Positions 9,292-63,008 are shown, numbered from the stretch's first letter. The stretch is 64,000 nucleotides of DNA from Candidatus Kuenenbacteria bacterium (GCA_012797775.1 JAAZOM010000029.1:3722-67721); one strand, 5' to 3'. Made by a program: numbers and translations. The notes: generated by a model from the sequence alone, not told the origin.

Positions 9292-9366
9292 CTAGTAACT
9301 AGCCCGCCTCGACTCGCATCGATGCGAGGCAGGTAACTGGTAATTTAAAATATTAAAAATAAAAAT

Positions 9367-10679: not shown

Positions 10680-10759
10680 ATTAATTTTTAATTTTATAAT
10701 TTTTAATTTTTAAACAATTTTCAATTTTATAATTTTTAAAATAAGAAAGAGTGCCATGA

Positions 10760-11916: not shown

Positions 11917-12212
11917 TAGATTAAGAACTATCAGGTGAGCAATGATAGTTTTTAATTTGGCAAAACAGAAGAGAAAACAAAAATTAACAACCAAGGAGCA
12001 GAAATATTTTTATAAGTTTTTGAAAAAATGATCGCAGGATCTGGGCGGTAGTAAAAAGTATAAAGGATATCGCCGCAAAAATATGAAGCCCAAACAATAA
12101 TTAGATTGTTAGTTTTAGAACAGAAAGAGAGAGCGGCCCAGAGGAGCACTTTGACAAATCGGGAAAGTAAAAACAAAAATCAAAAATCCCTAAGAAGGGA
12201 TTTTTTGTTTTT
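11917..12212 (+). ncRNA. Candidate sRNA or small-protein transcript (promoter to terminator, ~300 nt)
   Basis: Bounded by the promoter at 11883 and a hairpin+T-run terminator at 12183-12212 (ATCCCTTAGAAGGGAT TTTTTG). Contains only a 29-aa ORF. Confidence 0.3.
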
Positions 12213-15724: not shown

Positions 15725-15769
15725 AATAGTATTTAGTATTAAGTATTTAGTATAATAATTTTAACAGGA

Positions 15770-19285: not shown

Positions 19286-20836
19286 ATGAAAAAGGAAAAT
19301 CTCAAAAAGACAATTATGCAGTTGAAGGAGGAGGGCTTTTTTGATTGGCAAAAAGAGATAGAAAAAAATAAGGGCGAGGTTTTTTTGGTGGGCGGAGCAG
19401 TGAGAGATGCCCTGCTTGGGGACAAAGAAATAAAGGATTATGATTTTGTGGTGAGAGGAATAGAGATAGAGGAGCTTGGTAAAATTTTAAAGAGCTTGGG
19501 TAGGGTGGAACTCGTTGGTAAGAGTTTCGGTGTATACAAATTTGTACCGGCTGGTAAGAAAATGAAAATAGCTTTTGATATTGCATTGCCCCGAACAGAG
19601 ATTGCTCTGGCAACTGGTGGGTATAAAGATTTTAAAGTGAGGTATAATCACAAATTAAAAATAGAAGATGATTTGGGTCGTAGAGATTTTACAATTAATG
19701 CCTTGGCTTGGGATTTAAAGAAGGAAAAATTAATTGATGAGTTTGGAGGTTTGGAAGACTTAGAAAACAAATTGATCAGGACTGTGGGCAATGCTCAAGA
19801 GAGGTTTCGGGAAGATTATTCTAGGATGCTTCGAGGAGTGCGTTTTGCTTGTCAGCTGAATTTTCAAATAGAAAAAAGTACCAGGGTGGCTTTGCAGAAA
19901 TTGATAAAAAATATAAATGATGAGCGCGGCGGAGAAAGGGTGGTGCCGTATGAAATTTTGGGCGAGGAGATTTTGAAAGCTTTTGTTTATAATCCCATGG
20001 AGGCTTTTGATCTGATGGATAAATCTGGAGCGATGAGAGAGACAATGCCAGAGCTTTTAAAAATGAAAGGGTGTCCACAGCCAAGGAATTGGCATAGTGA
20101 GGGCGATGTCTGGACGCACACAAGATTGTGTTTGAAAAATTTAAATAGCGAGGCTTTTCGGGAAAGATTTGGAGACCCAATTATTTTTGATGATAAAATC
20201 AAAAACCAAAACTCAGAATTCAAAAGCAAGGTTAGATTATTAAATGCGGAATTAGTGATGGCCGTTTTGTGGCATGACGTGGGAAAGCCGGTAACAATTA
20301 TGACACCAGAAAAAAATGGCTCTGATAGAATTCGTTTTAATAATCATGATGAGTTGGGCGCCAAGATGGCAGAAGAGATTTTTAGAAAAATGAAATTTTC
20401 AGCCGCACCGGATTTTGATTTTGAGCCAGAGCGAGCTGCTTGGCTGATAAGAAAGCATCATTTATTTGATAAAAAAAGGATAAAAGAAATGAAGGCGGCA
20501 ACAATTGAAAAGTATTTTTTTTGTGAGAGATATAGTGGCGAGGATTTATTAAAACTCGGTTTTATTGATGGGCTGAGCTCAATACCGGAGGACGAGGAAG
20601 AACAGTTGGCGAGTTTTAATTTGATGATTGGCAGAATAGAGGGGTTAAAGAAGTTGGGTAAGGATAGAAAATTGCCAAAGCCATTACTTGATGGCAACGA
20701 GATAATGAAGATTTTGAAGATAAGGCCGGGCAAGAAAGTGGGTAAGATTTTGGAAGGGTTGAGAGAAAAACAGTTGGCGGGGAAGATAAAAAATAGAAAA
20801 GAGGCGGAGAAAGAGATCGGGAAGGTGGGGAAGTAG
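19286..20836 (+). CDS. cca: CCA-adding enzyme / tRNA nucleotidyltransferase with C-terminal HD domain
   Basis: GGAVRDALLG, RRDFTINA and HD-domain WHDVGKP motifs. Start placed at ATG 19286. The ORF track begins at TTG 19244. Confidence 0.8.
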   Translation: MKKENLKKTIMQLKEEGFFDWQKEIEKNKGEVFLVGGAVRDALLGDKEIKDYDFVVRGIEIEELGKILKSLGRVELVGKSFGVYKFVPAGKKMKIAFDIALPRTEIALATGGYKDFKVRYNHKLKIEDDLGRRDFTINALAWDLKKEKLIDEFGGLEDLENKLIRTVGNAQERFREDYSRMLRGVRFACQLNFQIEKSTRVALQKLIKNINDERGGERVVPYEILGEEILKAFVYNPMEAFDLMDKSGAMRETMPELLKMKGCPQPRNWHSEGDVWTHTRLCLKNLNSEAFRERFGDPIIFDDKIKNQNSEFKSKVRLLNAELVMAVLWHDVGKPVTIMTPEKNGSDRIRFNNHDELGAKMAEEIFRKMKFSAAPDFDFEPERAAWLIRKHHLFDKKRIKEMKAATIEKYFFCERYSGEDLLKLGFIDGLSSIPEDEEEQLASFNLMIGRIEGLKKLGKDRKLPKPLLDGNEIMKILKIRPGKKVGKILEGLREKQLAGKIKNRKEAEKEIGKVGK

Positions 20837-20910
20837 GGAGGTAGGTAAGTCGGGTAAACTGTAGTGTTTCATTGTTATGTTGTTGAATTATTAAATTGTT
20901 AAGTTATTAT

Positions 20911-21852
20911 ATGACAAAATTTTTAGTCGAATTAGGAGATGGGGGCAAAAGATTGGACCAATTTTTACAAGGAAAGCTGGGGGAGCTGTCGCGTTCACAG
21001 ATACAGAAAATGATTAAGGCCGGAGAAATAACCGTTGACGGAAAAGAGGTGGCAGTACATTATTTTTTAAAACCGGGGAATGAAATTAAAGTCAAAAGTC
21101 AATCCGCCAGCCGGCGGACAAAAGTCAATCCGCCAGCCGGCGGGCAAAAGTCAAAATTGGCGGGAATAAAAGTTATAAAAGAGGATAAGGATTATATTGT
21201 AGTAAATAAGCCAGCGGGGATGGTGGTGCACCCAGATACTATATACAAAGATAACGCTTTGGTTGATTGGCTAGTAAAGAAATATCCAGAGGTAAAAAAA
21301 GTGGGTGACGATCAAAAGCGACCGGGGATAGTACATCGTTTGGACAAAGATGTTTCTGGTCTTATGGTGGTAGCACGGACGCAAAAAATGTTTGATTATT
21401 TAAAAAAACAATTTCAAGATAGAAAAGTGGAGAAAGAATATCTGGCCTTGGTTCATGGTGTGGTAGTAAAAGATGAGGGCCTGATTGATAGGCCGATTGG
21501 CAGGACAGTTGGTGGGGTGATGGGTGTGGGATCAAAAAATAAAAAAAGTCGAGAAGCGGGAACACAGTATAGGGTGGTGGAAAGATTTAAAAATTTTACT
21601 TTATTAAAAATAAAGATTTTTACTGGGCGGACACACCAAATCAGGGCGCACATGAAATCGATTGGGCACGGCTTGATTGGCGACAATCTTTATGTGACGC
21701 GTGATATAAAAAGGAAAAAGAAACAAGAGGATTTGGGGCGAGTGTGGTTGTATGCTTGTCGGCTGGGTTTTAAAGATCTGGATGAGAAATGGCAGGAGTT
21801 TGAGGTGGCAATGCCAGAAGAATTAAAGTTGTTTTTGGGGAAGATAAAATAA
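20911..21852 (+). CDS. RluA-family 23S rRNA pseudouridine synthase (RluD-like) with S4 domain
   Basis: S4-like N-terminus and HRLDKDVSGLMVVART catalytic motif. Contains an in-frame tandem 26-bp repeat insertion (21093-21154). Confidence 0.85.
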   Translation: MTKFLVELGDGGKRLDQFLQGKLGELSRSQIQKMIKAGEITVDGKEVAVHYFLKPGNEIKVKSQSASRRTKVNPPAGGQKSKLAGIKVIKEDKDYIVVNKPAGMVVHPDTIYKDNALVDWLVKKYPEVKKVGDDQKRPGIVHRLDKDVSGLMVVARTQKMFDYLKKQFQDRKVEKEYLALVHGVVVKDEGLIDRPIGRTVGGVMGVGSKNKKSREAGTQYRVVERFKNFTLLKIKIFTGRTHQIRAHMKSIGHGLIGDNLYVTRDIKRKKKQEDLGRVWLYACRLGFKDLDEKWQEFEVAMPEELKLFLGKIK

Positions 21853-25102: not shown

Positions 25103-25135
25103 AATCAAAAAATCCCGATAAGATCGGGATTTTTT
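25103..25135 (+). terminator. Rho-independent terminator after korB
   Basis: AAAAATCCCGAT AA GATCGGGATTTTTTG. Confidence 0.75.
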
Positions 25136-25138
25136 GAA

Positions 25139-29410: not shown

Positions 29411-29980
29411 ATGAAGCAAAAATGGTTGAGGTTAATAAGAACAACAATATTATTTTGTTTGGCGGTGGTGATACTCGTGCCGGTTTTGGCCAAAGAAATT
29501 GACGAAAAGAAATATAAGACCGAAGATTACACTGAAATAATAAATGTTTTGCCGTTGAGTGAAGATTTTTCTTGGACGGAAAATTTACCAGAAAACGAGG
29601 AGAGGGAAAAGGTAAAAAGAATTGAGATAGATTTGTCAGAACAGAAAATGCGTTTATTGGAAAATGATAAAATAATAAGAGAGATGTCGGTTTCTAGTGG
29701 CAAGCCAGGGATGGAGACGCCAGTGGGGCAATTTCAGATACATAATAAAAATCCAAGGTCGTGGTCTAGTTATGGCTTGTGGATGCCCTATTGGATGTTA
29801 ATAGAGCCGAGGCGTGGAATTGGTATTCATGAGTTGCCGGAATGGCCAAATGGTTATAAAGAAGGAGAGAATCATCTTGGCACACCAGTATCGCATGGAT
29901 GTATTCGTCTAGGGGTGGGAGATGCAAAGTTTGTGTATGACTGGGCGGAGATAGGGACGCCGGTGGAGATAATTTATTAA
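29411..29980 (+). CDS. L,D-transpeptidase (YkuD domain)
   Basis: HGCIRL catalytic motif and an N-terminal TM. Start chosen at internal Met (MKQKWLRLI). Confidence 0.8.
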   Translation: MKQKWLRLIRTTILFCLAVVILVPVLAKEIDEKKYKTEDYTEIINVLPLSEDFSWTENLPENEEREKVKRIEIDLSEQKMRLLENDKIIREMSVSSGKPGMETPVGQFQIHNKNPRSWSSYGLWMPYWMLIEPRRGIGIHELPEWPNGYKEGENHLGTPVSHGCIRLGVGDAKFVYDWAEIGTPVEIIY

Positions 29981-30011
29981 TTTTCAATTTACAATTTTCA
30001 ATAAATTTTCA

Positions 30012-30668
30012 ATGACACAATTTTTAAACATAAAAAATAAGAAAGTGGTGGGAGTTGCTGTTGAGGTGTTAAATTCTGGTGGTGTTTTGGTATTTCCGAC
30101 AGAGACGGCTTATGGGCTGGCGGCGGACGCTGGGAGCAAAAAGGCGATTGAAAAGATTTATAAAATTAAAGGCAGGATGGCTAGTAAGTTTTTGCCATTA
30201 ATTGTAGGAAGCTTGAAGCAGATGCAGGAATTTTTTGAATTGGGCGAAAAAGAATTAGAGTTGGCAAAGAAGCATAAGGGGTTGACAATTATATTGAAAA
30301 TCAAAAATCCCCGGCCTCGACAAGCGAAGCGGGGCGGGCAAAAATCAAAAATAAGGAAGATTTATTTATTAAAAGGGCAGAATGATTGTGCGGTGAGAAT
30401 TTCTAAATATAAATTGGCGAGAGAGCTGGCCCTAAAATTGGGTCGGCCAATCACAGCCACCAGCGCCAATGTAAGTGGTGGAGAGAATTGTTATGGCTTA
30501 GAAGAAGTCACCGGCCAATTAAAAAATATAAAAACTCAGCCAGACTTGATTATTGATGGGGGTAGATTAAAAAAAAGAAAACCCTCAACTATTGTGAGGG
30601 TTGAGGGCGGAAAGGTGGAAGTGGTGAGACGGGGGGAGATAAAAATAAACTCAAAAGTTAAAACTTAA
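30012..30668 (+). CDS. tsaC: L-threonylcarbamoyladenylate synthase TsaC/YrdC (Sua5/YciO/YrdC family)
   Basis: VFPTETAYGLAADA motif. Contains an in-frame repeat-element insertion (30296-30355). Confidence 0.8.
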   Translation: MTQFLNIKNKKVVGVAVEVLNSGGVLVFPTETAYGLAADAGSKKAIEKIYKIKGRMASKFLPLIVGSLKQMQEFFELGEKELELAKKHKGLTIILKIKNPRPRQAKRGGQKSKIRKIYLLKGQNDCAVRISKYKLARELALKLGRPITATSANVSGGENCYGLEEVTGQLKNIKTQPDLIIDGGRLKKRKPSTIVRVEGGKVEVVRRGEIKINSKVKT

Positions 30669-31872: not shown

Positions 31873-32328
31873 ATGAAAATTGTAGTAGATACCAATATTT
31901 TGATGGATGCTTGGAGTGATAATTTTAGCTATGCTCGGAAAATTGTTGATGCGGTGATCCGGGGAGATATTGCGGCCGTGGCTTCACATAAAATTTGGAG
32001 GGAATACCAGTTGATTTTGGACAGGCTGGTGAATGATGAAGAACACTATAATTTGGCCAATAGTTTTTTTGCTGCAGTGGAGATGGTCGAGGTACGAAGG
32101 CGAGTAAACGTGGTTAAGTATGATCGGGATGATAATAAGTTTTTTGCCTGTGCAGAAGAAGCAGGAGCAGAATATATTGTGTCCAATGATATGCACTTAA
32201 TTGAAGTGGGAGAATATAAAGGAATTCGAGCGATGAAGCCAAAAGATTTTTGGTTGGGATATGAGGCAGGGGGTAAAGATGACGGTGCGGATTGGAAGAA
32301 TTGGATGAAGGGGATATTGGGAAAGTAG
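31873..32328 (+). CDS. PIN-domain protein (VapC-like nuclease fold), apparently orphan
   Basis: KIVVDTNIL start plus acidic residues spaced as in PIN domains (D..E..SND). No adjacent antitoxin-like ORF. Confidence 0.5.
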   Translation: MKIVVDTNILMDAWSDNFSYARKIVDAVIRGDIAAVASHKIWREYQLILDRLVNDEEHYNLANSFFAAVEMVEVRRRVNVVKYDRDDNKFFACAEEAGAEYIVSNDMHLIEVGEYKGIRAMKPKDFWLGYEAGGKDDGADWKNWMKGILGK

Positions 32329-32415
32329 GGAAGTAGGGTAAAATTAAAAAATCAAAATGTAAAATCATGGTAATTAAAATAACTCCGCCGAGGCGGAGTT
32401 ATTTTAATTGTTTTT

Positions 32416-38154: not shown

Positions 38155-39777
38155 TTACAAACTTTTTACCATGTAGGTATTTTCTAGTTTATAGCCCAGT
38201 TTTTTATAATAACCGCGGACGCCGATGCCGGAGATAATCGAGAGTTTTTGATAATGATTTTGGTGCGTGATTTTTTCGGCTTGGGTGAGGAGTTTTTTGC
38301 CAAGGCCAGTATGCTGAACGGCACCTTTTTGATTAAGGGGGACCATTTCGCCATAAGTGTGGAGCTCGCGAAGGAGGGCGGTAGGTTGGTAGGGAGGTAG
38401 GTTGGTAGGGAGGTAGGTTGGTAAGAAGAGGCGGCAGAAGGCATAGAGAATTTTTTGGTCCGGCGATTCATAGCTCAAAAAATATTCGGTGCCGTTGGAT
38501 ACTGGATAGGTTCTAATAAATAATTTAGGATTTAGGACTTTGGATTTATTTGGAAATTGGAAATTGGAAATTGGAAATTGATTTTGGTGCCCGGCTTCAC
38601 GGCAACGGATACATTGGCAAGTGAGATTTTGTTTAGTCATGGAAAATTTTATTTCCTGGCGGAGGTTGGTGATTTTGTTGCCAGCAATAATGGATTCTTC
38701 CGGAATGTCTCTGATAATTCTAATCAGGCGTACCCAGGGTGGAGTGATGGTTTTTATTTTAATAATTAAATTGGTCAGGGCTTTGTCTGAATAGGCATGC
38801 CATTTACCTTTTTGCCACCATTGATAGAGAAGAGAATTTCGGGCGACAACGCAGGGATAAATTTTAATTTGGTCAGGCTGAAAGTGCGGGTCGGAATAAA
38901 TACGCTTGAACATCGTTAAGTCTTTGGCTGGGGTAGAGCCGGGTAGATTAAGCATCAGATGGTAAGTAATTTTAAAACCAAATTGACGGAGTAGGGCAGT
39001 AGCTTTGATAGTTTGAGCAACGAGGTGGCCGCGTTTGTTGAGTTTGAGAATTTGATCATCAAGATGCTGGACGCCGATTTCCACGCGCGTACAACCAAGG
39101 AGACGCATAGTTTGTAATTCTTTTTCATTGATATAGTCGGGCCGAGTTTCTAGGGTAAGACCAATGATACGATTGGTGGCAGATTCGTTTTTTTTCTGCT
39201 CGTGCAAGAGTTGTTTTTGCAGGAGTTGGGTATTTAACGCTTTGTTAGCTTTTTTATTTTTGGGAAAGTCATTGGCGGCACGAAAACATTCTTTAATAAA
39301 CCAGAATTGATATTTTTTTGGATAATAGGACCAGGTGCCACCGAGGACAATTAATTCTAATTTATCAGTAGCGTGCCCGTTGTTTTGGAGAGCGCGGAGG
39401 CGCATCTGGACTTGTTTATAAGGATCAAATTTGCAAAGCACGGCGCGCATAACGGCTGGTTCATTTTTGAGATAGCTGACGGGCATTTTTTTCTGATGTG
39501 GACAATAGGCACAGGTGCCGGGGCAGGGATGGGGCTTGGCCAAAACGGTGACGGCGGCAATACCAGAAAGAGTGCGGACTTTGCGCTTGCGTAAAAATTT
39601 TAAAAGATGTGAATGGGGCTCATGTGTCTTTTTTAATTCTAGTAAAAGTTCAGAGTTGGTCGGCGGTTCAGCCATTTTAAATTTTTTGGCAAAGAGACGT
39701 TTGGCCACGGATAATTCTTCCTCGGCTTGAGGAGGATTTTTTTGGAGATATTTGATTAGCTCAGAAGAGATGGACAT
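38155..39777 (-). CDS. Elp3-like radical SAM + GNAT acetyltransferase (tRNA wobble-uridine modification family)
   Basis: Radical-SAM cysteine cluster CPGTCAYCP and a C-terminal GNAT motif (HTGLGKKLL). Carries two in-frame short tandem repeat insertions (38381-38428, 38553-38582). Confidence 0.7.
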   Translation of the reverse strand: MSISSELIKYLQKNPPQAEEELSVAKRLFAKKFKMAEPPTNSELLLELKKTHEPHSHLLKFLRKRKVRTLSGIAAVTVLAKPHPCPGTCAYCPHQKKMPVSYLKNEPAVMRAVLCKFDPYKQVQMRLRALQNNGHATDKLELIVLGGTWSYYPKKYQFWFIKECFRAANDFPKNKKANKALNTQLLQKQLLHEQKKNESATNRIIGLTLETRPDYINEKELQTMRLLGCTRVEIGVQHLDDQILKLNKRGHLVAQTIKATALLRQFGFKITYHLMLNLPGSTPAKDLTMFKRIYSDPHFQPDQIKIYPCVVARNSLLYQWWQKGKWHAYSDKALTNLIIKIKTITPPWVRLIRIIRDIPEESIIAGNKITNLRQEIKFSMTKQNLTCQCIRCREAGHQNQFPISNFQFPNKSKVLNPKLFIRTYPVSNGTEYFLSYESPDQKILYAFCRLFLPTYLPTNLPPYQPTALLRELHTYGEMVPLNQKGAVQHTGLGKKLLTQAEKITHQNHYQKLSIISGIGVRGYYKKLGYKLENTYMVKSL

Positions 39778-39914
39778 AGTGAGGTTATTATATAAGTAGG
39801 GGGGAGATAGTCAAGGAATCTACGAATATACAAATCAGTTATGAATATACGAATAAATACCATAATTCATAATACATTATTCATAATTCATTTTTTGTGT
39901 TAGATTGAGGATAT

Positions 39915-40727
39915 ATGAATAATGAACAAGCAAAAAGAATAATGGAAATTAGCAAAAAGACCTACGAGATGATTGCGGCGGATTTTTCAGCGACGAGAAA
40001 TAGGGTGTGGCCCGAGATGGAGATATTGGTCAAAAAGTATGTAAAGCCGGGGATGAAGGTGTTGGATTTGGGGTGTGGGAATGGGAGACTTTTGGAGGTT
40101 TTACCGGAGGTGGAATATTGGGGAGTGGACGTGTCAGAAGGATTGGTGGGAGAGGCAGAAGATAAACTCAAAACTCAAAACTCAAAACTCAAAACAGTTT
40201 TTAGGGTGTTGGATATGTTGGAGCTGGAAAAACTGGGAGAGAAAAATTTTGATGTGGTATTTATGTTTGCGAGTTTGAACCATATTGCGGGAGAAGAAAA
40301 TAGATTGAAAGTTTTGGAAGAGATAAAAAAAATATTAAAGCCGGGCGGAGTGGTGGTGATGACGAATTGGAATATGTGGCAGGTGGGGGCGGGGAAGAAC
40401 ATGTGGAGATATAAATTACAATTTTCAAGATACAAGATACAAGATACAAATAAATCCCAAATTTCAAATTCCAAATCCAAAATAAATCCCAAATTTCAAA
40501 TTCCAAAATTTGGTTTAGGATTTAGGGATGCGATGACGAGATGGCAGAGTGGAGACAAAAAAAGGGTCGGGGAGCTTTATTACCGAGCGTTTAATTTGGT
40601 GGAGTTGAGAAAATTGATGCGGGAGGCGGAGTTTGAGGTGGTGGAGAATTATTATTCTTTGGATGGGAAGAGGGCGTGTTGGTGGAATGGAAGGAATATT
40701 GTGAGTGTGGGAAAATTTAATGGATAA
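39915..40727 (+). CDS. Class I SAM-dependent methyltransferase
   Basis: VLDLGCGNGRL motif I. Contains in-frame heptamer repeat insertions. Confidence 0.75.
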   Translation: MNNEQAKRIMEISKKTYEMIAADFSATRNRVWPEMEILVKKYVKPGMKVLDLGCGNGRLLEVLPEVEYWGVDVSEGLVGEAEDKLKTQNSKLKTVFRVLDMLELEKLGEKNFDVVFMFASLNHIAGEENRLKVLEEIKKILKPGGVVVMTNWNMWQVGAGKNMWRYKLQFSRYKIQDTNKSQISNSKSKINPKFQIPKFGLGFRDAMTRWQSGDKKRVGELYYRAFNLVELRKLMREAEFEVVENYYSLDGKRACWWNGRNIVSVGKFNG

Positions 40728-40756
40728 TTGTTGGTTTAAATGATAGAATATATTAT

Positions 40757-43615
40757 ATGAAAAAGGAAAAAATAGCTATAATTGATGCCAATGCAATAGT
40801 CCATCGGGCGTTTCATGCCCTGCCGCCTTTGATGACCAAGGACGGGGTTCTGGTCAATGCGGTCTATGGTTTTGCCAATATTTTATTGAAAGTTTTGAAA
40901 GACATAAAGCCGGAATATGTGGCGGTGTGTTTTGACGTATCGAAAGAAACTTTTCGCTTGGAAATGTATAAAGAGTATAAGGCGCAAAGGGAAAAGCAGC
41001 CTGATGAATTGTATAGCCAAATTGATTTGGTGAAAGAGATGATTGGGGCGTTTAATATGTCGATTTTTGCCGTAAAGGGGTTTGAAGCCGATGATTTGAT
41101 AGGGACTATTGTAAAAAAAATCCAAAATTTTAATGTCAAACAAAATCCAAAATCCAAAATCCAAAAAGGGAACGAAATTGAGAGTGTGGTTGTGACGGGG
41201 GATATGGATACTTTGCAGCTGATAGGTGATAATACCAAAGTTTACACTCTAAAAAAAGGCATTGCAGATACAATTATTTATGATGAGACGGCGGTCAGAG
41301 CGCGGTATGGATTTGGCCCGGAGGCAATGGTTGATTACAAGGCGCTTAGAGGCGATCCGTCGGATAATATACCGGGAGTGAAAGGTATAGGGGAGAAGAC
41401 GGCAACGGAATTGATAAAAGAATTTGGGACGCTGGAAAAAGTGTATGAGTATGTTGAACAAACCCAAAATCCAAAATCCAAATTTCTAATCAAATCCAAA
41501 ATCCAAAATCAAAAAGATTTAAAAATAAAAGGAGCGGTATTAGAGAAATTGATGGAGCATAAAAAAGAAGCGTTTTTGTCCAAGGAGTTGGCGACGATTA
41601 AGACAGATGTGCCAATGAAATTTGACTTGGAAGGGTGCCGAGTGAGACCATTTGACGCACCAAAAATTGTAGAATTATTTCAGGCGTGGAATTTTAAATC
41701 ATTGATCGCCCGAATTCCCGCAGCGGAAAAAGAGCTGACAAGGGGGCAGGGGAGTTTGTTTGCTAAAAGAGAGGAGACTAGAGAAGAAAGAAAGGTTGAT
41801 TTTGAAATAGGAAAAGGATATATATTGGTTGATAGCCAAGAGAAAGTAGAAAGGTTTTTGGTGGAACTCGGAAAACAAAAAATATTTGCCATTGATACAG
41901 AGACAAATGGGCTGGATCCGTTTCAGGCTGATTTGATTGGAATTAGTTTTAGTTTTGAAGAGGGGAAAGGGTATTACCTGCCTGTCGGAAGAAATTTTCA
42001 ATTTTCAATTTTCAATTTTCAATTATTATTAAATAAATTAAAACAGATTTTGGCGGATGGGGGTATTAAGAAGGTGGGGCATAATATTAAATTTGATATG
42101 GAGACTTTGGCTGGGGCGGGATTGGAACTGAAAGGAGTGGAATTTGATACCATGGTGGCGTCTTATCTTTTGAACCCGGGGACAAGACAGCACAATCTTG
42201 ATGCGGTGGTATTCACTGAATTTGGTTATGAGATGACACCGATAGAGAGTCTGATAGGTAAGGGGAAAGACCAGATTACAATGGATAAAGTAGAATTAAA
42301 CAGGGTGGCGGATTATGCGATTGAGGATGCTGACTATACTTGGCGGTTGTATAAAAGATTGGACAAACAATTGATAAAAAACAAATTGCGAGAATTGATG
42401 GATAAAATTGAGACGCCATTAATTTCAGTTTTGGCTGAAATTGAGAAAAATGGGGTTTTGGTTGATGTAAAATTTCTTGGCAAGATGAGTCGTGAAGCAG
42501 GGGAAAGAATAAAAGAATTGGAGAAAAAGATTTATAAAATGGCAGGGCGGGAATTTAATGTGCGTTCGCCAATACAACTTAAAGAGGTTTTGTTTGATGA
42601 GATGGGGATTTCAAGGTTGGGGTTGGCAAAAACCAAAACGGGAACCTCAACAGCCGCAGCAGAGCTGGACAAACTGCAGGGCGTTCATCCGATTATTGAT
42701 TTGATTTTGGAGCATCGGGAATTGTCAAAATTGAAGAGCACCTATACAGATGCTTTGCCGGAGTTGATAAACCCAAAGACCGGCCGGATCCATGCTTCAT
42801 TTAATCAGACAGTAACAGCGACCGGGAGGCTGTCATCTTCAGAGCCAAACTTACAAAATATTCCTATCAGAACAGAATTGGGCAAAAAAATTAGGCAGGC
42901 ATTTGTGGCACCCAAGGGTTTTAAGATAGTAACGATAGATTATTCGCAGATAGAGCTCAGGATTGCGGCTTCAATGTCGGGTGATAAGAAAATGTTGCAA
43001 GCTTTTAAAAATAGTGAGGATATCCATCGGCGAACGGCGGCAGAGGTTTTTGGTGTAAAACCAGAAGCGGTGACACCAGAAATGAGGCGCAAGGCCAAAG
43101 AAGTAAACTTTGGGGTTTTGTATGGGCTGGGGGCTAGGGGCTTGGCGCAGAGAACCGGGACGAGTTATGAAGAGGCAATGCTTTTTATTGAAAAATATTT
43201 TGAGATATTTGGTGATTTGAAAAATTATTTGGAGGAAACCATTGAGCAGGCACATGAAAATGAATATGTGGAGACGCTTTTTGGCCGGAAACGTTATTTG
43301 CCAGAGATCAATGCTGAACACCAACAGCTAAGGGCGGCAGCAGAGAGAATGGCGGTCAATCAACCAATCCAAGGTACGGCGGCTGACCTGATGAAGCTGG
43401 CGATGATAAAAATAGATGAGATGCTTAAAAAAGATAAGCTTGGGGAGATAAAAATGGTTTTGCAGGTGCATGATGAGTTGGTATTCGAAGCTCCAGACAA
43501 TATGGCAGAGGTGATTGGCAAAAAAATGAAAGAAACGATGGAAAGTGTTTATAAATTTAAGTGTCCAATAGTGGCAGAGATGTCTATTGGTAATAATTGG
43601 GGAGAATGTAAATAA
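40757..43615 (+). CDS. polA: DNA polymerase I
   Basis: 5'-3' exonuclease N-terminus, 3'-5' exonuclease-like middle, pol A motifs (DYSQIELR, QVHDELVFE). Three in-frame repeat insertions. Confidence 0.95.
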   Translation: MKKEKIAIIDANAIVHRAFHALPPLMTKDGVLVNAVYGFANILLKVLKDIKPEYVAVCFDVSKETFRLEMYKEYKAQREKQPDELYSQIDLVKEMIGAFNMSIFAVKGFEADDLIGTIVKKIQNFNVKQNPKSKIQKGNEIESVVVTGDMDTLQLIGDNTKVYTLKKGIADTIIYDETAVRARYGFGPEAMVDYKALRGDPSDNIPGVKGIGEKTATELIKEFGTLEKVYEYVEQTQNPKSKFLIKSKIQNQKDLKIKGAVLEKLMEHKKEAFLSKELATIKTDVPMKFDLEGCRVRPFDAPKIVELFQAWNFKSLIARIPAAEKELTRGQGSLFAKREETREERKVDFEIGKGYILVDSQEKVERFLVELGKQKIFAIDTETNGLDPFQADLIGISFSFEEGKGYYLPVGRNFQFSIFNFQLLLNKLKQILADGGIKKVGHNIKFDMETLAGAGLELKGVEFDTMVASYLLNPGTRQHNLDAVVFTEFGYEMTPIESLIGKGKDQITMDKVELNRVADYAIEDADYTWRLYKRLDKQLIKNKLRELMDKIETPLISVLAEIEKNGVLVDVKFLGKMSREAGERIKELEKKIYKMAGREFNVRSPIQLKEVLFDEMGISRLGLAKTKTGTSTAAAELDKLQGVHPIIDLILEHRELSKLKSTYTDALPELINPKTGRIHASFNQTVTATGRLSSSEPNLQNIPIRTELGKKIRQAFVAPKGFKIVTIDYSQIELRIAASMSGDKKMLQAFKNSEDIHRRTAAEVFGVKPEAVTPEMRRKAKEVNFGVLYGLGARGLAQRTGTSYEEAMLFIEKYFEIFGDLKNYLEETIEQAHENEYVETLFGRKRYLPEINAEHQQLRAAAERMAVNQPIQGTAADLMKLAMIKIDEMLKKDKLGEIKMVLQVHDELVFEAPDNMAEVIGKKMKETMESVYKFKCPIVAEMSIGNNWGECK

Positions 43616-56253: not shown

Positions 56254-56706
56254 TTAAGCTTTGTTTTTTAGTAGCTTGATGGCTTCCAAAGAAAGTGCTT
56301 TTGTATTTTTGGGGGCGCCCCCAAGAGTTTTTATTTCCTTGGCAGTAAACCATTTTAGGTTGGTGGTCTCTCCATTTTGCGGATTAATTTTATTAGATTT
56401 AGCTGAAGCATAATAGATAAAGTCTATATGTTGGTGGAATTGATTGATATTTTCCAGCAAGATGTGCATGGGGCGAAATAATTGCTTGGCATCTCCCATT
56501 TTTATTTGTTTATCAGGATTATACATTGTTATTTCTAGGCCAGATTCTTCTTTTATTTCGCGCAAGGCGGCTTCCTGCGGCAATTCATCGCGGTCGATAT
56601 GGCCTCCAACAGGAATCCAAATACCGAGCTTTTTGTGCAAATGTAAAAGCACTTTATTTTTGTGTACTATTATGGTTGTAGCGGTAAAGTGTCTTGTTAT
56701 TTCCAT
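56254..56706 (-). CDS. NUDIX hydrolase
   Basis: Nudix box GGHIDRDELPQEAALREIKEESGL. Confidence 0.8.
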   Translation of the reverse strand: MEITRHFTATTIIVHKNKVLLHLHKKLGIWIPVGGHIDRDELPQEAALREIKEESGLEITMYNPDKQIKMGDAKQLFRPMHILLENINQFHQHIDFIYYASAKSNKINPQNGETTNLKWFTAKEIKTLGGAPKNTKALSLEAIKLLKNKA

Positions 56707-56734
56707 ATGGAAAATAGCGAAGCGAGTGATGTCC

Positions 56735-56955
56735 GCATAACGTACGCGTGTATGTGATGTCCGCCGTTAGGCGGATATGGGCGAAGGTTCACCGATAGGG
56801 GAACCGTAGCCACATACACGCTGTTATATGATGTACGCTTTTTCTTTTAACCCAATAGGGTCGTTTTTCTGTTATAGATCAAATTGATTTTTCATTTGGC
56901 GGGGGCGCAAGAGGGAAAATCAAAAAGGGTGAATTGCGCCCCCCGCCAACACAAT
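56735..56955 (-). ncRNA. Structured noncoding leader element, copy 1 (upstream of the NUDIX gene)
   Basis: An 11-bp outer stem GCGTGTATGTG/CACATACACGC encloses two hairpins. Conserved single-stranded TGATGT, ATATGGG.G.AGG and GTTATATGATGT blocks. A second hairpin has the conserved loop GAGGGAAAAT.AAAGGGTGAA. It is homologous to 59372-59660 with compensatory stem changes. Confidence 0.45.
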
Positions 56956-56963
56956 CGTATTAA

Positions 56964-58457
56964 TTATAGTGCTCCACCTAGTCGTATATACCCGTCGTAA
57001 GGGGCCGGTGCTTTTTCTCCTGTGATACCTTGGTCAAGGTCGAAACCAATTGATCTATCGGCAAGTCCCTCATCTTTTCCTATTGCGGAAAATAATACTG
57101 AATTTGCGCTGGTGTCTGGCACTTTTTCTTCCCGACGAAAAAAAGATAATTCTGCGTCTGAATCGCACTCACGATCTAAATTTATGGATGACGCTCTAAT
57201 ATCCGTTTCGTCAAGTAGGTCAGCAACATTTTGTCTGCCTTCCATGCTGTCGCGCGCAACATGTGCGTTGCCTAAAATCGCTAACATTTTTCCGCCACCT
57301 TCAACAACTTCGCGAATTTTTTGCATCATGAAGATATCTCGTTGTTTTTCCAGTTCCGCCTCTTTTGCCTTTAAAGTCTCCATTGTCACGCCATTGCGTC
57401 CAAGTGATTCCATACCCCGATCAAGTTCCTGGTTTGTGCCATAAGTCGCATTTGCGTCTATACAAGATGGACGCAAGCCAGACTGGCGTATTGCTTCTAA
57501 CAAACGGTAATTTTTGTCCAAATGGTTTTTGAATAAAAAGTTTTTTTTAAACATTTTTTGTTGTTCAAAAGCGAACATTTCATCAGTTACGCCCTCTCGT
57601 TTGATAGCACGGTATTGTCCTCCTTCATCTCGTTGAAAATCAAATAATGGTTGATTTTTAGGGTCAACACCAGCAGTAAGCTGTTCTCGAAATAATTGGT
57701 GATATTCATCTACTCGCTCGTAGTCGGTCGGGTCGTCTGCGTCGTCAAATTTGCCGGTAGTCATATAATGATCAACTGCCTCTTGATAATACGCTGGTAT
57801 TTCTAAACCTATATGCGTTGTGCCAGCGGCCTTGGCTTGTTCAAGAAATCTTGCTGTTGCTCTTTTTTCAACAGTTTCGTGGGTGTGTATTTCGCCAAGT
57901 AAAACAACATCGTTGCCACGTATTTTATCCGATAAGTATTCGCCCGCATTTTTTGCTCGCTCTCTCACTTGACCCATATCTACTTGTGATTCTAATCTGC
58001 TACGTTCTTTTGAACCTATCCCTAGCTGTTTTTCGCCAACGTAAAATCCAGTAAAAAATTTATTCTTCTCTTTTGGTTTATTTCTCCCTCTCTCAAATAA
58101 ACCTCCTGTTAAAAAATTAGCGACGGACAAAAATCGCTCCTTCATTCGACCAAGAGATAAGTCCAGCCGGCGTAATTTATCCGCTGTTTCTTTTTGAATT
58201 TCGGCAAATTGCGCATTTAGTTCGGGCGGAAATTCGGCACTTGTTTGTTCCTTGCTTTGCAAAGCTGAGAGTGTATCATGTCCGGCTTTCAGCCCTGCGT
58301 CTGTTTCTGTATCAATTTCTCTCTGGATTTTAGAAATATCCGGCAGGCGTTCACGCTCCGGAGTTTCTGGCGGTTTTTCCGCGGTCGCTTCCCGCTGGGC
58401 TAATTTTTCAATTTCCGGATTGGTCATACTGATTGATTTGTTTTTTAACATGCTCAA
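56964..58457 (-). CDS. Hypothetical protein with C-terminal Tiki/TraB/ChaN-superfamily-like domain (two GxxH motifs)
   Basis: VVLLGEIHTHE and AILGNAHVA resemble the paired GxxH motifs of ChaN/TraB/Tiki. N-terminal coiled-coil region. Higher GC than surrounding genes. Confidence 0.4.
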   Translation of the reverse strand: MSMLKNKSISMTNPEIEKLAQREATAEKPPETPERERLPDISKIQREIDTETDAGLKAGHDTLSALQSKEQTSAEFPPELNAQFAEIQKETADKLRRLDLSLGRMKERFLSVANFLTGGLFERGRNKPKEKNKFFTGFYVGEKQLGIGSKERSRLESQVDMGQVRERAKNAGEYLSDKIRGNDVVLLGEIHTHETVEKRATARFLEQAKAAGTTHIGLEIPAYYQEAVDHYMTTGKFDDADDPTDYERVDEYHQLFREQLTAGVDPKNQPLFDFQRDEGGQYRAIKREGVTDEMFAFEQQKMFKKNFLFKNHLDKNYRLLEAIRQSGLRPSCIDANATYGTNQELDRGMESLGRNGVTMETLKAKEAELEKQRDIFMMQKIREVVEGGGKMLAILGNAHVARDSMEGRQNVADLLDETDIRASSINLDRECDSDAELSFFRREEKVPDTSANSVLFSAIGKDEGLADRSIGFDLDQGITGEKAPAPYDGYIRLGGAL

Positions 58458-58584
58458 TTTTCAGCGCGTCAATTTTTGCTTGTGCTTCTTTTACGATTTT
58501 ATTTTTTTCATGCGCAATATCTTGCACACTAGCCTGGTAGTGAGAGAGCAATTTCATGAGCAATTTTGTGATGTTTGTATTCAT
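58408..58584 (-). CDS. Possible 58-aa coupled small ORF
   Basis: Its ATG overlaps the stop of the upstream gene (ATGA), and its 3' end overlaps the annotated start of the downstream gene. Confidence 0.3.
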   Translation of the reverse strand: MNTNITKLLMKLLSHYQASVQDIAHEKNKIVKEAQAKIDALKIEHVKKQINQYDQSGN

Positions 58585-59183
58585 ACGGCTTTTTGTTTTG
58601 AACGTTCTTGTGAGTAGATAAATACTAGTTTTGAATTGCCTTTTTCAGCTTTGATACCAATATCACCAATTTGATTTACATCATATCCAAAATTTTGAAG
58701 ATGTGGCTGTAATTTTTCCGCCTCACCTTTGGGAATGAGCAAGTGCAAACCCTCGCGCGGAATTGATGGATCATTAATTGTTTCAGTGTCAACAAACAAA
58801 ATGATATTTTGTTTTTGTTCCAATAATTCTACCAGCTTACCGACATCTTTTGCCTCAAGACCGCTGGCCTCAATCGTTCGTTTAGCCAAATCGCCGACTT
58901 CTGTGATATCTTTTCCTTTCATTGCCGATAGTGTATTTTCTTCGGCTTGTTCAATCGCGGCTCTTTCAGTGTCTAGCACCGAACTCCTGTCAAAAGAACG
59001 GATGCCGACCTGTTCGCCGTATGCTGTGTTGGCGACAAGTTTTTCTTGGCCAGGTAATCCCACGTAGTATGTTTCAATCGCGTGCGGTTTTTGAGGTTTG
59101 TCTTTTGTTTCTGGAGCGGGTTGTTTAAGTCTGGATTCTTTTGCGATTTGTTCTTGATTGATTTCTCGTGATCTGTTAGGCAT
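58581..59183 (-). CDS. Hypothetical protein (200 aa), part of the foreign cassette
   Basis: ORF with elevated GC and no recognisable motifs. Confidence 0.5.
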   Translation of the reverse strand: MPNRSREINQEQIAKESRLKQPAPETKDKPQKPHAIETYYVGLPGQEKLVANTAYGEQVGIRSFDRSSVLDTERAAIEQAEENTLSAMKGKDITEVGDLAKRTIEASGLEAKDVGKLVELLEQKQNIILFVDTETINDPSIPREGLHLLIPKGEAEKLQPHLQNFGYDVNQIGDIGIKAEKGNSKLVFIYSQERSKQKAV

Positions 59184-59371
59184 ATGTTTTAAAAATATAT
59201 ATTAAATTGTATTCGCTTGCGAGGGATGGAGCAAGCGAATACACCTTGTTTTTCCCTCATAAAATAATTCGTTTCCGCAGCGATAGCGGAGGAAACACCA
59301 TATTAAATGAAAAATCAATTTGATCGTTATAGAAAAACGGGCGACTGCAGGAGCCAAAAGAAAAAGCGTAT

Positions 59372-59660
59372 TTCATACAACGTTTCGGCATATCTGATGT
59401 TTGCCGTAGCGTAGCGGAGGCAAATATGGGTGGAGGCTTTTGTATAAAAGCCGTAACCAGATATGCCGTGTTATGTGATGTGCATGTTTTACTTTAATCC
59501 CGATAGCAATCGGGCTTGCTCTAAAAAAGAATTTTAATTTTGTTTTTTTGTTTTGGATTTTGGGCAGAGGGGTTAGGGGTGAATGCCCAAAATCCAAAAC
59601 TCCTTATTTTGTTTGAGGGAGGGGCAAGAGGGGAAATAAAGGGGTGAATTGCCCCAACCG
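59372..59660 (-). ncRNA. Structured noncoding leader element, copy 2 (upstream of the cassette)
   Basis: Same architecture as 56735-56955, with outer stem CGGCATATCTG/CAGATATGCCG (compensatory). Includes an extra inverted repeat TTTTGGATTTTGGGCA..TGCCCAAAATCCAAAA. Confidence 0.45.
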
Positions 59661-59668
59661 AAAACGCT

Positions 59669-60715
59669 CTATTTCTTTTTTGTATAATATTTATCAAATT
59701 TTTTCACAATATTCGGGCTATAAAAATCTTTTCTGGAACTTTTTGTATTATCAGGATCAAGATAGCGTGTTCTGCTCAAATTTTTGTCTTTCATTAATTC
59801 TTTACGAAGTTTGTGAAATTTACCGTTCGTCTTAAAATCACCAAATCGTTTATTTAATTCTTTTACTAAACCGCGATAATCAAGCGGATATTTTTTCTTT
59901 AAAATTTCTTCCTCTTCAAGCCTCATGGCTGGCGCATTTGGATCATCTGTTATTTGAACGCCTAAACCGTTTTTACTTTTTCCTGCAACTATTGAAACTG
60001 GTTTGACATCTCCAATAAGTCTTAATACTGGCTTTCCTTTTTCTTGAAAATTACCCTGATTTATAAATTTTAATTTTGGAATCAGTTTTTTATCTATGAC
60101 AAGCGTTCCACCTTTCCCAGTTATTTCTCCGCCGATAGTATCCATAATTGCCGCGTTTGTTGGACCAATTTTTGATATTTTTTCAAAATGCTCCAGCCAG
60201 CCTTTTCTTTCCTCTTCTTTAACAAAATCAAACATCGCTATTATTTCCGGATATTTTATCCTTTCACTTCTTGCATTGTAGCGATAATAAATATCTGCCT
60301 CTTTTAATTCGCCATCATTTTTTAGACACACAATCGGTTTTGTCTTTGCTTGTTGCGTATACAATAATCCAATTTTTTTGGTATTTACGGTTATTTCAAA
60401 TTTTTCAAAAATTATTTCTGGGGCAAAGACACTGTTTAGGTACGCGGTAATTTTAGCTTCGTCCACCTCTTCAAAATTATTGCTTTGAAGTCCAACAAGA
60501 TCACGCGGTTTATCTTTTATCCCGAAAACAATATATCCGCCCTTATTGTTTGCAAAAGCAACCATGCTTTTTGCGTATTTGTCTTTTGAATTCCAGTTGA
60601 AAGATTCTTTAAATTCAAGCCACCCACTTTCACGCGAGATTATTCTATCTGCGATTGTTTCGTGGAACAAAAAAATCTTGTTGTATTCATCGTTATTTTT
60701 AAAATCATTGCTCAT
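59669..60715 (-). CDS. AlbA_2 (Schlafen-like) domain protein
   Basis: ESGWLEFKESF and VAFANNKGGYIVFGIKDK match the AlbA_2/divergent-AAA DNA-binding domain signature. Its start is 2 nt after the res stop. Confidence 0.6.
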   Translation of the reverse strand: MSNDFKNNDEYNKIFLFHETIADRIISRESGWLEFKESFNWNSKDKYAKSMVAFANNKGGYIVFGIKDKPRDLVGLQSNNFEEVDEAKITAYLNSVFAPEIIFEKFEITVNTKKIGLLYTQQAKTKPIVCLKNDGELKEADIYYRYNARSERIKYPEIIAMFDFVKEEERKGWLEHFEKISKIGPTNAAIMDTIGGEITGKGGTLVIDKKLIPKLKFINQGNFQEKGKPVLRLIGDVKPVSIVAGKSKNGLGVQITDDPNAPAMRLEEEEILKKKYPLDYRGLVKELNKRFGDFKTNGKFHKLRKELMKDKNLSRTRYLDPDNTKSSRKDFYSPNIVKKFDKYYTKKK

Positions 60716-60717
60716 AT

Positions 60718-63006
60718 TTATTTTAGATCAAAAACTTCCCACCCTTTCATTGATGAATCAAAAGAATACTTTGCGTTGCGGTTAATTTTCCAGCCATTCG
60801 GGCCGTCTTGGACGGCTATACCGCCGTCAAAATCTTTTCTGCCTTTCAGCCACGCTTGCAAGGCCTCCGCTTTATATTTTGTATCGTTACTCTCGGCGGT
60901 AATACCAGCTTTTGTATCAATAATTATAACGCCCTTTTTAGTCTTAATGATCCAGTCAGGATAAAATAGTTTTTCTTTGTTCTCATCGGGGTTATAGTAG
61001 GAAATTGAAAAATGCTCACTTCCATTGTCGCCGTTTTTATGCCACCAAATTACGCTTTTATTTTGAGGCGATTCGAGAAACTTGATAAAGTTTTTCTCAT
61101 TATCGTTTCCGCCGAAAAGCCCTGCTTGAGTTTTTTCAAACCAAAAAGGTTCCATTGCTGATTTTTTGACCGCCAATTCCTCGTATTGATCGGTAAAAAA
61201 TAATGCTTCGCGCGGTATTTCAATATGCTCCACGCGCTTCGCGCGTGCCGCTTTTTTATTTACTTCTTGCTCACGGACAGGGCGATATGCTAAAAGTGCA
61301 TCACCGATTACTGGCGCGAGTGCGCCAGCTTCACCAACTAAATCGTTCACAATAACTTTGTAAACGTCCGCGCGTGAAAGTTTTAACTTCTCCATTAGAT
61401 AAATATTGAGTGCGGTTTTGAGCTTGCCCCATGAACGTTCTGGCGCAAATTTACGGTTTTCGTCGGTTTGTTTGGCGACAATTTTGAAACACAATAGATT
61501 ATATAATCGTTCAAGATCATGGCGAGACATTTCTTCATCATAACTCCCGCCTTCTTCAAAAAGCTCCTTTGTAAAATTGTCATAATCGTCAATTTCCACA
61601 CCGACAATTAAGCCGTTTGTAACCTTGGGCTTTAGGTTTAGCTTTTTTGTATCCAGTTTTTTATCCGCTACTTGCTTGAAAGTATTTTGGAATGAATCAC
61701 CCAAGTCGTTATAGTCCGCACGTGTCATAAAGACGGATTCCAGTTTGATCGGTTCAACATTTTTCTTGCGATAACTGCCGTTGATTGCGGGACGGTTTTC
61801 GGTTTTGGATTTTGCGTATTCCGCCAAAACTTCGTTGCGCTTATAGTTAGTGTAAAGATAACCAAGATTAAGTTCGGGGTTGGCAAAGTGGGTGCCAAAT
61901 GGCATACGTAAAATACGCCCGACGGTCTGTATTGCAAAAGTCGGATTCTTTATCTCGCGGAACATCACCAACACGCTCGCGCGCGGACAATCCCAGCCAG
62001 TCGCGACGGCTTGTTTGAACAAGAGAAACGAAACAGGCGAGTTGTGTTTTTCTAAATCTTCCAAATTTTCTTTTTCCTTGGAGAGCCAAACGGCAATTTC
62101 ATCGTTTTTTACACCTTTGCGTTTTAGATACTCCAATACAATCGTCTGTTTAGTTGTGTCACTCGTTTCTTTGCTTGCTTGATCGTCATTTGGAAGTTGA
62201 ATTAAAACAAGTGGATTAACTTCAACGCCGATCTTTTTGTACAAATCAATCAATTCTTTCCGTTTGGAATACGCTAATTCCAAAAGCATTTCGTCTTGGT
62301 CAAGTTTTTTGACGGCTTTCTGTTTTAAATCTTCTTCTGTCTGAAAAACAATTTTTTCTTTGATTAACCCTGCTTCAACGACATCACTTCGCTTTGCTTC
62401 AACATATCCCGCAGTTTCGGCGCGAGTAGGAATATATTTCGGCGTAGCCGACACGCGAAGCGTGATTTTTGGTTTGATAAGTCCATCCACCACTTCCATA
62501 GCAAGATCGGTGTCGCTTCCGATATGTTCCTCATCAATAATTACAACAATTTTGCGTCCTGCGTCGTGGGTTTCGTTGATAAAATTATCAAAAGTCAACC
62601 CTTGCTCATTTTCACGGCGTAATTTACGACTATCCTTGCTTTTGCCTTTTATTTTCTGCCAGTTTATAAAAAAGACATCATTTTGATGAAGTTTCTCGCG
62701 CGAAAGGTCGTTTAAGTCAATTAAATCAAGCTCACTTGCTCCGCCATAATAATCAAAAAGTTTCTTTTTGCTCTGTTCGTAAGAATCCTCGCTGAAAGAA
62801 AACCACACAAAAGCTACATCATTGCCCTGAAATCGGGGATCGCTGACAATATCGCGCAAAAATTGTGCCAACATTATCGTTTTACCGCTTCCAGTCGGCG
62901 ATTTAAAAACAAGCGGTATATTTTGATTTGGCAATTTCCACAAATTCAAAAACTGATCTTTGAGTTGTGATATTGCTGTTTCTTGAAATGGTTTTAAAGC
63001 AAACAT
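60718..63006 (-). CDS. res: Type III restriction enzyme Res subunit (helicase-like)
   Basis: Walker A SPTGSGKT and DEAH-like IIDEEH, with SF2 helicase motifs. 762 aa. Confidence 0.85.
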   Translation of the reverse strand: MFALKPFQETAISQLKDQFLNLWKLPNQNIPLVFKSPTGSGKTIMLAQFLRDIVSDPRFQGNDVAFVWFSFSEDSYEQSKKKLFDYYGGASELDLIDLNDLSREKLHQNDVFFINWQKIKGKSKDSRKLRRENEQGLTFDNFINETHDAGRKIVVIIDEEHIGSDTDLAMEVVDGLIKPKITLRVSATPKYIPTRAETAGYVEAKRSDVVEAGLIKEKIVFQTEEDLKQKAVKKLDQDEMLLELAYSKRKELIDLYKKIGVEVNPLVLIQLPNDDQASKETSDTTKQTIVLEYLKRKGVKNDEIAVWLSKEKENLEDLEKHNSPVSFLLFKQAVATGWDCPRASVLVMFREIKNPTFAIQTVGRILRMPFGTHFANPELNLGYLYTNYKRNEVLAEYAKSKTENRPAINGSYRKKNVEPIKLESVFMTRADYNDLGDSFQNTFKQVADKKLDTKKLNLKPKVTNGLIVGVEIDDYDNFTKELFEEGGSYDEEMSRHDLERLYNLLCFKIVAKQTDENRKFAPERSWGKLKTALNIYLMEKLKLSRADVYKVIVNDLVGEAGALAPVIGDALLAYRPVREQEVNKKAARAKRVEHIEIPREALFFTDQYEELAVKKSAMEPFWFEKTQAGLFGGNDNEKNFIKFLESPQNKSVIWWHKNGDNGSEHFSISYYNPDENKEKLFYPDWIIKTKKGVIIIDTKAGITAESNDTKYKAEALQAWLKGRKDFDGGIAVQDGPNGWKINRNAKYSFDSSMKGWEVFDLK

Positions 63007-63008
63007 AA

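Follow-up and report, generated by a model that had tools for sequence, protein, structure and literature searches.

A 64-kb stretch of a Candidatus Kuenenbacteria (Patescibacteria) contig, referred to here as the window and encoding PolA and TsaD proteins 100% identical to database entries labelled Candidatus Kuenenbacteria, carries short tandem arrays with a 7-nt unit inside the open reading frames (ORFs) of conserved housekeeping genes. We think it probable that these arrays are heptanucleotide microsatellites born by slippage, and kept where their unit is free of stop codons in all three frames and where a protein loop tolerates them. Arrays were detected using Tandem Repeats Finder (TRF) and, separately, an exact scan of the window. 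The exact scan returned six perfect arrays of at least three units with period 7 and none at periods 5, 6 or 8–16, the six being 24–32 nt long with 3.4–4.6 units. Lag-7 match runs of at least 10 were observed 10 times against a mean of 0.0 in dinucleotide-type shuffles, and other periods gave 0–1. Eight of the 12 strongest arrays fall inside ORFs with the host genes intact, meaning that no intergenic predominance was seen, and the host ORFs encode TsaD, the CCA-adding enzyme, an Elp3-like radical SAM protein, a class I methyltransferase and DNA polymerase I (PolA). The first-pass annotation of this DNA, made from the sequence alone, had listed such arrays; TRF and the exact scan recovered them at the same positions or within a few bases, and translation bore out the low-complexity peptides it quoted. 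Predicted junction peptides of the translated arrays include KQNPKSKIQK and GRNFQFSIFNFQ.

Two ways in which the arrays could be misleading were rejected. The first-pass annotation had raised the possibility of an assembly artefact, but this is unlikely: the arrays (24–32 bp) are shorter than a sequencing read and the proteins recur across public sources, with an identical TsaD protein in NCBI, Logan and ENA, an identical PolA protein in NCBI and ENA, and the PolA of one relative on 14 contigs. Programmed-frameshift 'slippery heptamers' were also dropped, as the host genes are single continuous ORFs with homology on both sides of the arrays in the same frame. A search of the window for known RNA families found nothing but tRNAs.

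Nine coding arrays are concentrated in three adjacent genes between 38.4 and 42.0 kb. Since the arrays of relatives lie in the same three genes, we judge tolerance by the proteins to be likelier than a regional effect. The relatives used for comparison were L001, L003 and L004 (syntenic or related loci) and the related Kuenenbacteria strains L125 and L126. In polA, which is on the + strand, loop 1 in the 5′-nuclease domain (41118–41170) consists of CAAAATC x3.7 (perfect at 41141–41166), loop 2 (41458–41520) of two imperfect CCAAAAT sub-arrays (41460–41515), and loop 3 in the 3′-5′ exonuclease domain (41993–42024) of a perfect array of AATTTTC x4.6, which gives the peptide NFQFSIFNFQ. The methyltransferase gene (+ strand) has a perfect array of AAACTCA x4.6 with the peptide KLKTQNSKLKT at site 1 (40164–40195). 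At its site 2 (40426–40507), a perfect array of CAAGATA x3.4 (40426–40449) is followed by degenerate CAAATTC-type heptamers (an imperfect array at 40452–40507); this site is 19 aa longer than in L001, and its tail pairs weakly with the downstream TTTGGTTTAGGATTTAGGG.

The Elp3-like gene lies on the − strand and holds two kinds of repeat. Its heptamer arrays (38523–38580) read ATTTAGG x3.7 and TTGGAAA x4.4 on the + strand; the TTGGAAA array is perfect (38550–38580), with CAATTTC as the coding-strand unit and QFPISNFQFPN as the peptide. These heptamer arrays are common to the window and L003 and are missing in L001. The other repeat is a 16-bp unit x3.1 at 38375–38423 (coding strand CTCCCTACCAACCTAC, peptide LPTYLPTNLPPYQPT). 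It was rightly reported as a repeat in the first-pass annotation, which counted it among the insertions, but it is the same length as its counterpart in solved Elp3 structures and is not a net insertion. It is of the same G-rich AGGTAGGG / AAGTAGGG type as 8-/16-mers found on the + strand at the 3′ ends of the cca (20823–20854) and PIN (32323–32338) genes.

Further upstream on the + strand, a loop insertion of 30 aa in tsaD (2058–2152, residues 125–154) contains a perfect array of AAAATTC x3.4 (2060–2083). Beyond this array the insertion continues with the hairpin CCTGCCTCGCCGGCAGG, which is GC-rich, and ends in GGGCAAAA and degenerate heptamers. The sua5/tsaC gene (30300–30355, + strand) has AAAATCA heptamers on either side of a GC-rich hairpin and GGGCAAAA. 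An array had also been assigned to the gene for the CCA-adding enzyme (cca); a heptamer stretch is indeed present there (20205–20240, + strand) and exceeds its L004 counterpart by about 5 aa, but it is degenerate (AAAATCA/AAAACCA/AAACTCA/GAATTCA) and received no TRF call.

Alignment to solved homologues supports the earlier claim that these are lineage-variable segments in conserved proteins. Compared with Taq polymerase, PolA residues 124–135 (12 aa) and 235–255 (21 aa), corresponding to loops 1 and 2, are pure insertions; TsaD residues 125–154 are the 30-aa insertion relative to 8iey, and sua5 has a 12-aa insertion relative to its solved homologues. The PolA AlphaFold model has a mean pLDDT of 82.7 and four segments below 50, two of which are repeat sites 1 (130–138) and 2 (239–252). 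At site 3 (residues 411–420) pLDDT averages 57, and the model shows no secondary structure there. Mapping the PolA sites in this way places them in low-confidence, unstructured loops, as had been suggested. Judging from the alignments and the model, the arrays are in-frame insertions at positions of conserved genes predicted to be tolerant.

The reading frame itself explains much of what the arrays look like. Because 7 is not a multiple of 3, the units of a period-7 array are read in each of the three frames, and the peptide repeats every 7 residues. For that reason no stop triplet can be tolerated anywhere in the cyclic unit of an array within an ORF. By enumeration, 46 of the 146 necklaces with at least six A/T are stop-free, and the stop-free necklaces with at least five A/T number 222. 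A stop-free unit with an A-run after a T-run needs a C as separator, since TGA rules out G, and the shared look of the units, CAA[A/T][A/T][T/C][T/C], largely follows from this rule; CAAAATT, CAAAATC, CAATTTT, CAATTTC and CAAATTC all fit it. Every coding unit seen is stop-free save AGTTACT of L003, whose frame is kept by a single T-to-A change that deletes a TAG, with the array stopping short of the next stop. The stop-containing heptamers TAGTAAC and TAGTATT occur only between genes or at a stop codon. The statement in the first-pass annotation that the arrays always preserve the frame is true, but it reflects a selection filter and not something inherent in the repeats. The stop-rich arrays of the window, TAGTAAC x2.3 and TAGTATT x3.9, lie at 9287–9302, 9830–9846 and 15727–15753 and have stops in all three frames; the one at 9830–9846 overlaps the nusB stop codon. 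These heptamers resemble the TAACTGA direct repeats of Beggiatoaceae and cyanobacteria (PMC4679880).

Related genomes have different units at the same loops, and turnover is for this reason seen as fast and local. In L001, L003 and L004 period 7 is dominant and there is essentially no other array period. Of 11 syntenic genes compared, only Elp3, the methyltransferase and polA had internal indels of 3 aa or more, which cluster at the repeat-bearing loops, and none were found in YchF, PIN, ABC, FolD, SHMT, NUDIX, HU or PilT. At polA loop 1 the five genomes have five different arrays: CAAAATC in the window, a 16-mer in L001, AAAAGGC in L003, AAATTCA in L125 and the 8-mer GAAAACAA in L126. The loop 3 unit is CAATTTT in the window, CAATTTC in L001 and CAAAATT in L003. 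Methyltransferase site 1, which has AAACTCA in the window, has a different imperfect 7-mer in L001 and the 8-mer GAAATAAA in L003, and the Elp3 loop at 38375–38423, a 16-mer in the window, is an AGTTACT heptamer array in L003. Certain relatives are without the arrays altogether. The TsaD loop is a hot spot in 32 relatives, with NFQFSIFNFQ, KIQNSKFK, NPKSQI and other heptamer peptides, and the protein ranges from 330 to 420 aa. Length variation among species-level relatives is real.

The arrays are not confined to this lineage. Scanning 185,579 species genomes for CAAAATY x3 gave at least 120 loci (L005–L124), and the matches listed come from Nostocales and other cyanobacteria, Chloroflexota, Acidobacteriota, Bacteroidota, Verrucomicrobiota, Gammaproteobacteria, Planctomycetes and a few Patescibacteria. 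Among these 120 listed loci from other phyla, 225 period-7 arrays were found against 25 of period 4 and at most 10 for each of the remaining periods from 5 to 12, and there were 65 further period-7 unit types. Depending on the unit, 19–46% of the listed arrays are inside ORFs of at least 200 aa, and for CAAAATY the share in sense ORFs of that size is 42 of 132. Although CAAAATC is stop-free on both strands, the listed matches in ORFs are 21 sense to 5 antisense, a bias in keeping with selection that prefers QNPKSKI, which is hydrophilic, to the hydrophobic peptide encoded on the antisense strand. Arrays of other units in L005–L124 have a long length tail, reaching 88 nt.

In metagenomes, a scan for CAAGATA x3 gave at least 120 arrays (L127–L246), and 28 of the 120 listed are inside ORFs of at least 200 aa. 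The ten hosts checked were the CCA-adding enzyme, RsmA (twice, at the same site), DnaG, TsaE, GyrA, MnmA, PolA, a Mur ligase and PriA. The similar peptide flavour pointed out in the first-pass annotation does recur, as heptamer peptides turn up in further housekeeping genes from other genomes. On visual inspection, several of the CAAGATA arrays (for example in L130, L133, L144, L159, L168 and L170) seem to form one side of a long hairpin, with a loop that is often GC-rich followed by complementary TATCTTG-type or T-rich heptamers. Viral contigs had 37 CAAAATC x3 loci, compared with 14 and 40 for permuted stop-free controls, and 7 CAAGATA x3 loci, compared with 44 and 4. There is no consistent enrichment over the permuted controls in viral contigs, and thus no sign there of a special status for the window's units.

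In the mechanism that we favour, tandem duplications with a 7-nt period would be unusually frequent in this Patescibacteria lineage, as in many bacteria, and would most likely arise by replication slippage between short microhomologies. An array in a gene is read in three frames as a 7-residue repeat and faces two filters. The first admits only units that are stop-free in the three coding-strand frames, forcing AT-rich units into an A-run, a T-run and a C, and the second lets only arrays in permissive loops and linkers survive. Birth, homogenisation, mutation and replacement are quick at these loops, which is why related genomes differ in unit at one site, with the net change in length always a multiple of 3. 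We infer that slippage is the birth mechanism and that the arrays have no function of their own.

Several observations weigh against this explanation. Slippage itself was not seen: copy number did not change among 13 strain-level variants (98–100% identical) in one PolA cluster, all of 952 aa, or among 8 near-identical (100%) members of a second PolA cluster, where the sole shorter full-length protein belongs to a 92%-identical member with 9 aa missing at loop 1. The earlier suggestion of phase or length variation stands for length between species-level relatives but is not supported for copy number among near-identical strains. Perfect CAAAATY arrays among the matches listed peak at lengths of 25 and 32 nt (7n+4) and are seldom longer than 35 nt, and simple slippage does not predict such a non-monotonic distribution. 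The same composite order, CAAGATA followed by a CAAATTC-type unit, is found in the window's methyltransferase gene and in polA of L004, and CAAGATA, an uncommon unit, is present in at least 10 different metagenome housekeeping genes, a figure for which a bacterial baseline is absent. Why the period is 7 is also not accounted for.

The polA genes of L125 and L126 provide a further point on the same side. They are ~99% identical, differing at 59 of 2859 nt, and 36 of these differences fall within nt 353–425, that is, in loop 1, where L125 has AAATTCA x3 and L126 has x3.5 of the octamer GAAAACAA with equal total length. This was the sole strain-level difference to emerge, and it looks like a swap of the whole cassette within clustered substitutions, pointing to recombination rather than slippage. 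Substitutions outside loop 1 are clustered and mosaic as well, which suggests recombination tracts. Between polA and the HU gene both strains have a diversity-generating retroelement (bAvd accessory protein and reverse transcriptase) at 5296–6690 in L125 and 5351–6745 in L126; a link to the arrays was dropped, as the window has no such element at that position.

These observations bring in the main rival to slippage, in which the arrays spread without a transposase and template switching or gene conversion between A-rich arrays seeds new loops and homogenises units within a genome. Besides the cassette-like dimorphism of L125 and L126 and the composite order shared by two genes in two genomes, this possibility draws on the recurrence of NFQFSIF and QNSKFK peptides in unrelated proteins and on the presence of CAAAATC at polA sites 1 and 2 and in a hairpin at 59550–59600 of the same genome. 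That hairpin had been entered as a tandem motif site (59541–59600), but it is an intergenic perfect 17-nt inverted repeat (GTTTTGGATTTTGGGCA / TGCCCAAAATCCAAAAC) with CCAAAAT units in its arms and a predicted fold of −26 kcal/mol, and not a tandem array. Against it, the flanks are not conserved: neither flanking conservation nor target duplication was seen at the arrays, and for 106 CAAGATA arrays among the listed metagenome matches nothing was conserved beyond one degenerate unit. Many different units also sit side by side, and the recurrence of particular units is without a baseline, permuted heptamers being about equally common in viral contigs. For these reasons we consider spread between arrays rather improbable as the general explanation.

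We would give slightly less credence to the idea that the arrays are more than plain slippage products. Some dedicated or templated mechanism would then make or copy them at a favoured length (~25 or 32 nt) and carry a few units into A-rich loops of housekeeping genes in Patescibacteria and other phyla. If that were true, much of the evolution of protein loops in these reduced genomes would be driven by a mechanism not recognised so far.

The first-pass annotation had likened the arrays to Rickettsia palindromic elements (RPEs) and read them as a proliferating repeat family. RPEs are palindromic, ~100–150 bp long and have a family consensus. The arrays do share with them the habit of lineage-specific, in-frame insertion into conserved genes, several of them essential, at surface positions where insertion is tolerated. 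They differ in being tandem repeats of 21–60 bp without consensus ends, and the only parts of the window that resemble a small palindromic element are four GC-rich hairpin modules in tsaD (2084–2112), an rluD-like pseudouridine synthase gene (two copies, 21093–21154) and sua5 (30305–30345). A-rich heptamers surround these modules, whose shared borders are AAAGTC ... GGGCAAAA, and the motif GSGGRCAAAA occurs 9 times against 1.39 expected. In the rluD-like gene (21088–21160, + strand) the modules form a 26-bp unit x2.4 (CAAAAGTCAATCCGCCAGCCGGCGGA) within the linker that joins the S4 domain to the catalytic domain, and its two copies are read in different frames. The GC-rich modules and methyltransferase site 2 fold, whereas the pure heptamer arrays do not, and the modules may be a separate family of small palindromic elements.

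As an account of the heptamer arrays, a miniature mobile element of the RPE kind, inserting in frame and proliferating, is unlikely. Neither ends nor flanks are conserved among the arrays, inverted termini are lacking and length is not fixed; orthologous sites in close relatives differ in unit, and the same units are found in unrelated phyla and, at the frequencies of permuted controls, in viruses, with the likeness among them coming largely from the stop-free rule. Just four hairpin copies were seen, and neither the rluD nor the Elp3 segments add net length. The motif GGCGGRCAAAA had no matches in 126 loci, among them six related Kuenenbacteria loci, although those six do not cover the tsaD or sua5 orthologues.

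A somewhat fainter prospect is that selection maintains the arrays for a role in themselves, whether as sites for DNA- or RNA-binding proteins, as uptake-signal-like sequences or as disordered peptide linkers. The sense-strand bias, the presence of arrays in intergenic hairpins besides genes and a favoured size of ~4.5 units could all be taken in this way. On the other side, the unit is not conserved at orthologous sites, certain relatives do without the arrays, and unit types are very diverse.

Contingency loci, in which gain or loss of one unit would switch a gene on or off, are very improbable here. The unit is not a multiple of 3, so a one-unit change would shift the frame, and the short 7-bp units of the H. 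influenzae hmw promoter, which drive phase variation of the HMW adhesins (PMC8262952), are similar in this respect. In known contingency loci, however, the tracts are long and polymorphic and sit in the promoter or at the 5′ end of genes with surface or restriction functions, while the window's tracts are short (3–4.6 units), lie in loops of essential enzymes (the hosts being polA, tsaD, the Elp3-like gene and the methyltransferase gene), and show no length variants in the two clusters of near-identical PolA proteins and no frameshifted or truncated alleles among the proteins retrieved.

Housekeeping proteins of Plasmodium falciparum contain low-complexity insertions, with tracts that are mostly codon-periodic (Asn and Lys runs). 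The arrays described here are like these insertions in arising from AT-rich, slippage-prone DNA and in forming lineage-specific low-complexity loops with fast turnover (compare PMC3140889). Unlike the Plasmodium tracts, the window's period is 7 nt, so that a 7-residue peptide repeat results from all three frames.

The closest bacterial comparison is with the class of long simple sequence repeats (SSRs) that includes the cyanobacterial STRR, GGGNATC of Xanthomonas and Nostoc, and TAACTGA of Beggiatoaceae. According to two reports, both of which cite Mrazek 2007 (PMC4679880, PMC4692102), the commonest long simple repeats of most bacterial genomes are heptanucleotide ones, and polymerase slippage has been proposed as their source. 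The window's arrays agree with this class in being perfect 7-nt tandem arrays, usually of 3–5 copies, with period 7 favoured and many units per genome, in their preference for ~4 units, and in that their CAAAATY units are common in Nostocales and other phyla. They depart from it in location: described bacterial heptanucleotide repeats are mainly intergenic and under-represented in coding regions (PMC4692102, PMC4679880), whereas the eight window arrays within intact housekeeping genes are predicted to be translated. The ~4-unit preference has been published and explained by G-quadruplex formation (PMC4692102), but the window's A-rich units cannot form G-quadruplexes and are not covered by that explanation. 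In the literature searched, we found nothing on heptanucleotide or simple repeats in Patescibacteria or the candidate phyla radiation, and no description of translated arrays there.

A few other features of the window are recorded here for completeness. Between genes, an AT-rich array of TTAATTT type at 10681–10740 has a period of 7, 15 or 26 with 75% matches, and AATTTTC x3.4 at 29979–30013 fills the 31-bp spacer from the stop codon at 29980 to the sua5 start at 30012. Intergenic hairpins at 240–279, 12175–12212, 25105–25137 and 32372–32409 have an A-rich left and a T-rich right arm (e.g., AAAGCCAAAAATTCCCTAA / TTAGGGAATTTTTGGTTTT); they share CAAAAAT-type words with the coding arrays and look like bidirectional terminators. 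GC skew is strongly positive (0.1–0.4) from position 1 to ~56 kb and negative after ~56–60 kb, with a cumulative maximum near 58 kb, and the long ORFs at 56254–63788 are all on the − strand. The turn near 56–60 kb may reflect the terminus or origin of replication, or else a change in the direction in which genes are oriented. ARAGORN identified a tRNA-Ile gene with anticodon UAU on the − strand (3457–3533); most bacteria decode AUA with a lysidine-modified CAU tRNA.

If the arrays are slippage-born microsatellites, as we think probable, then length change in the essential proteins of a bacterium of ultra-small size can have one of its main sources in non-triplet microsatellites. The bacterial excess of 7-nt repeats, long noted but unexplained, is seen here to extend into coding sequence, and the A-rich arrays share the ~4-unit preference formerly ascribed to G-quadruplex formation. 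The rule that units be stop-free in three frames explains the likeness of unrelated insertions, and it should help with annotation, with the trimming of alignments in candidate-phyla phylogenomics and in guarding against mistaken mobile-element calls.

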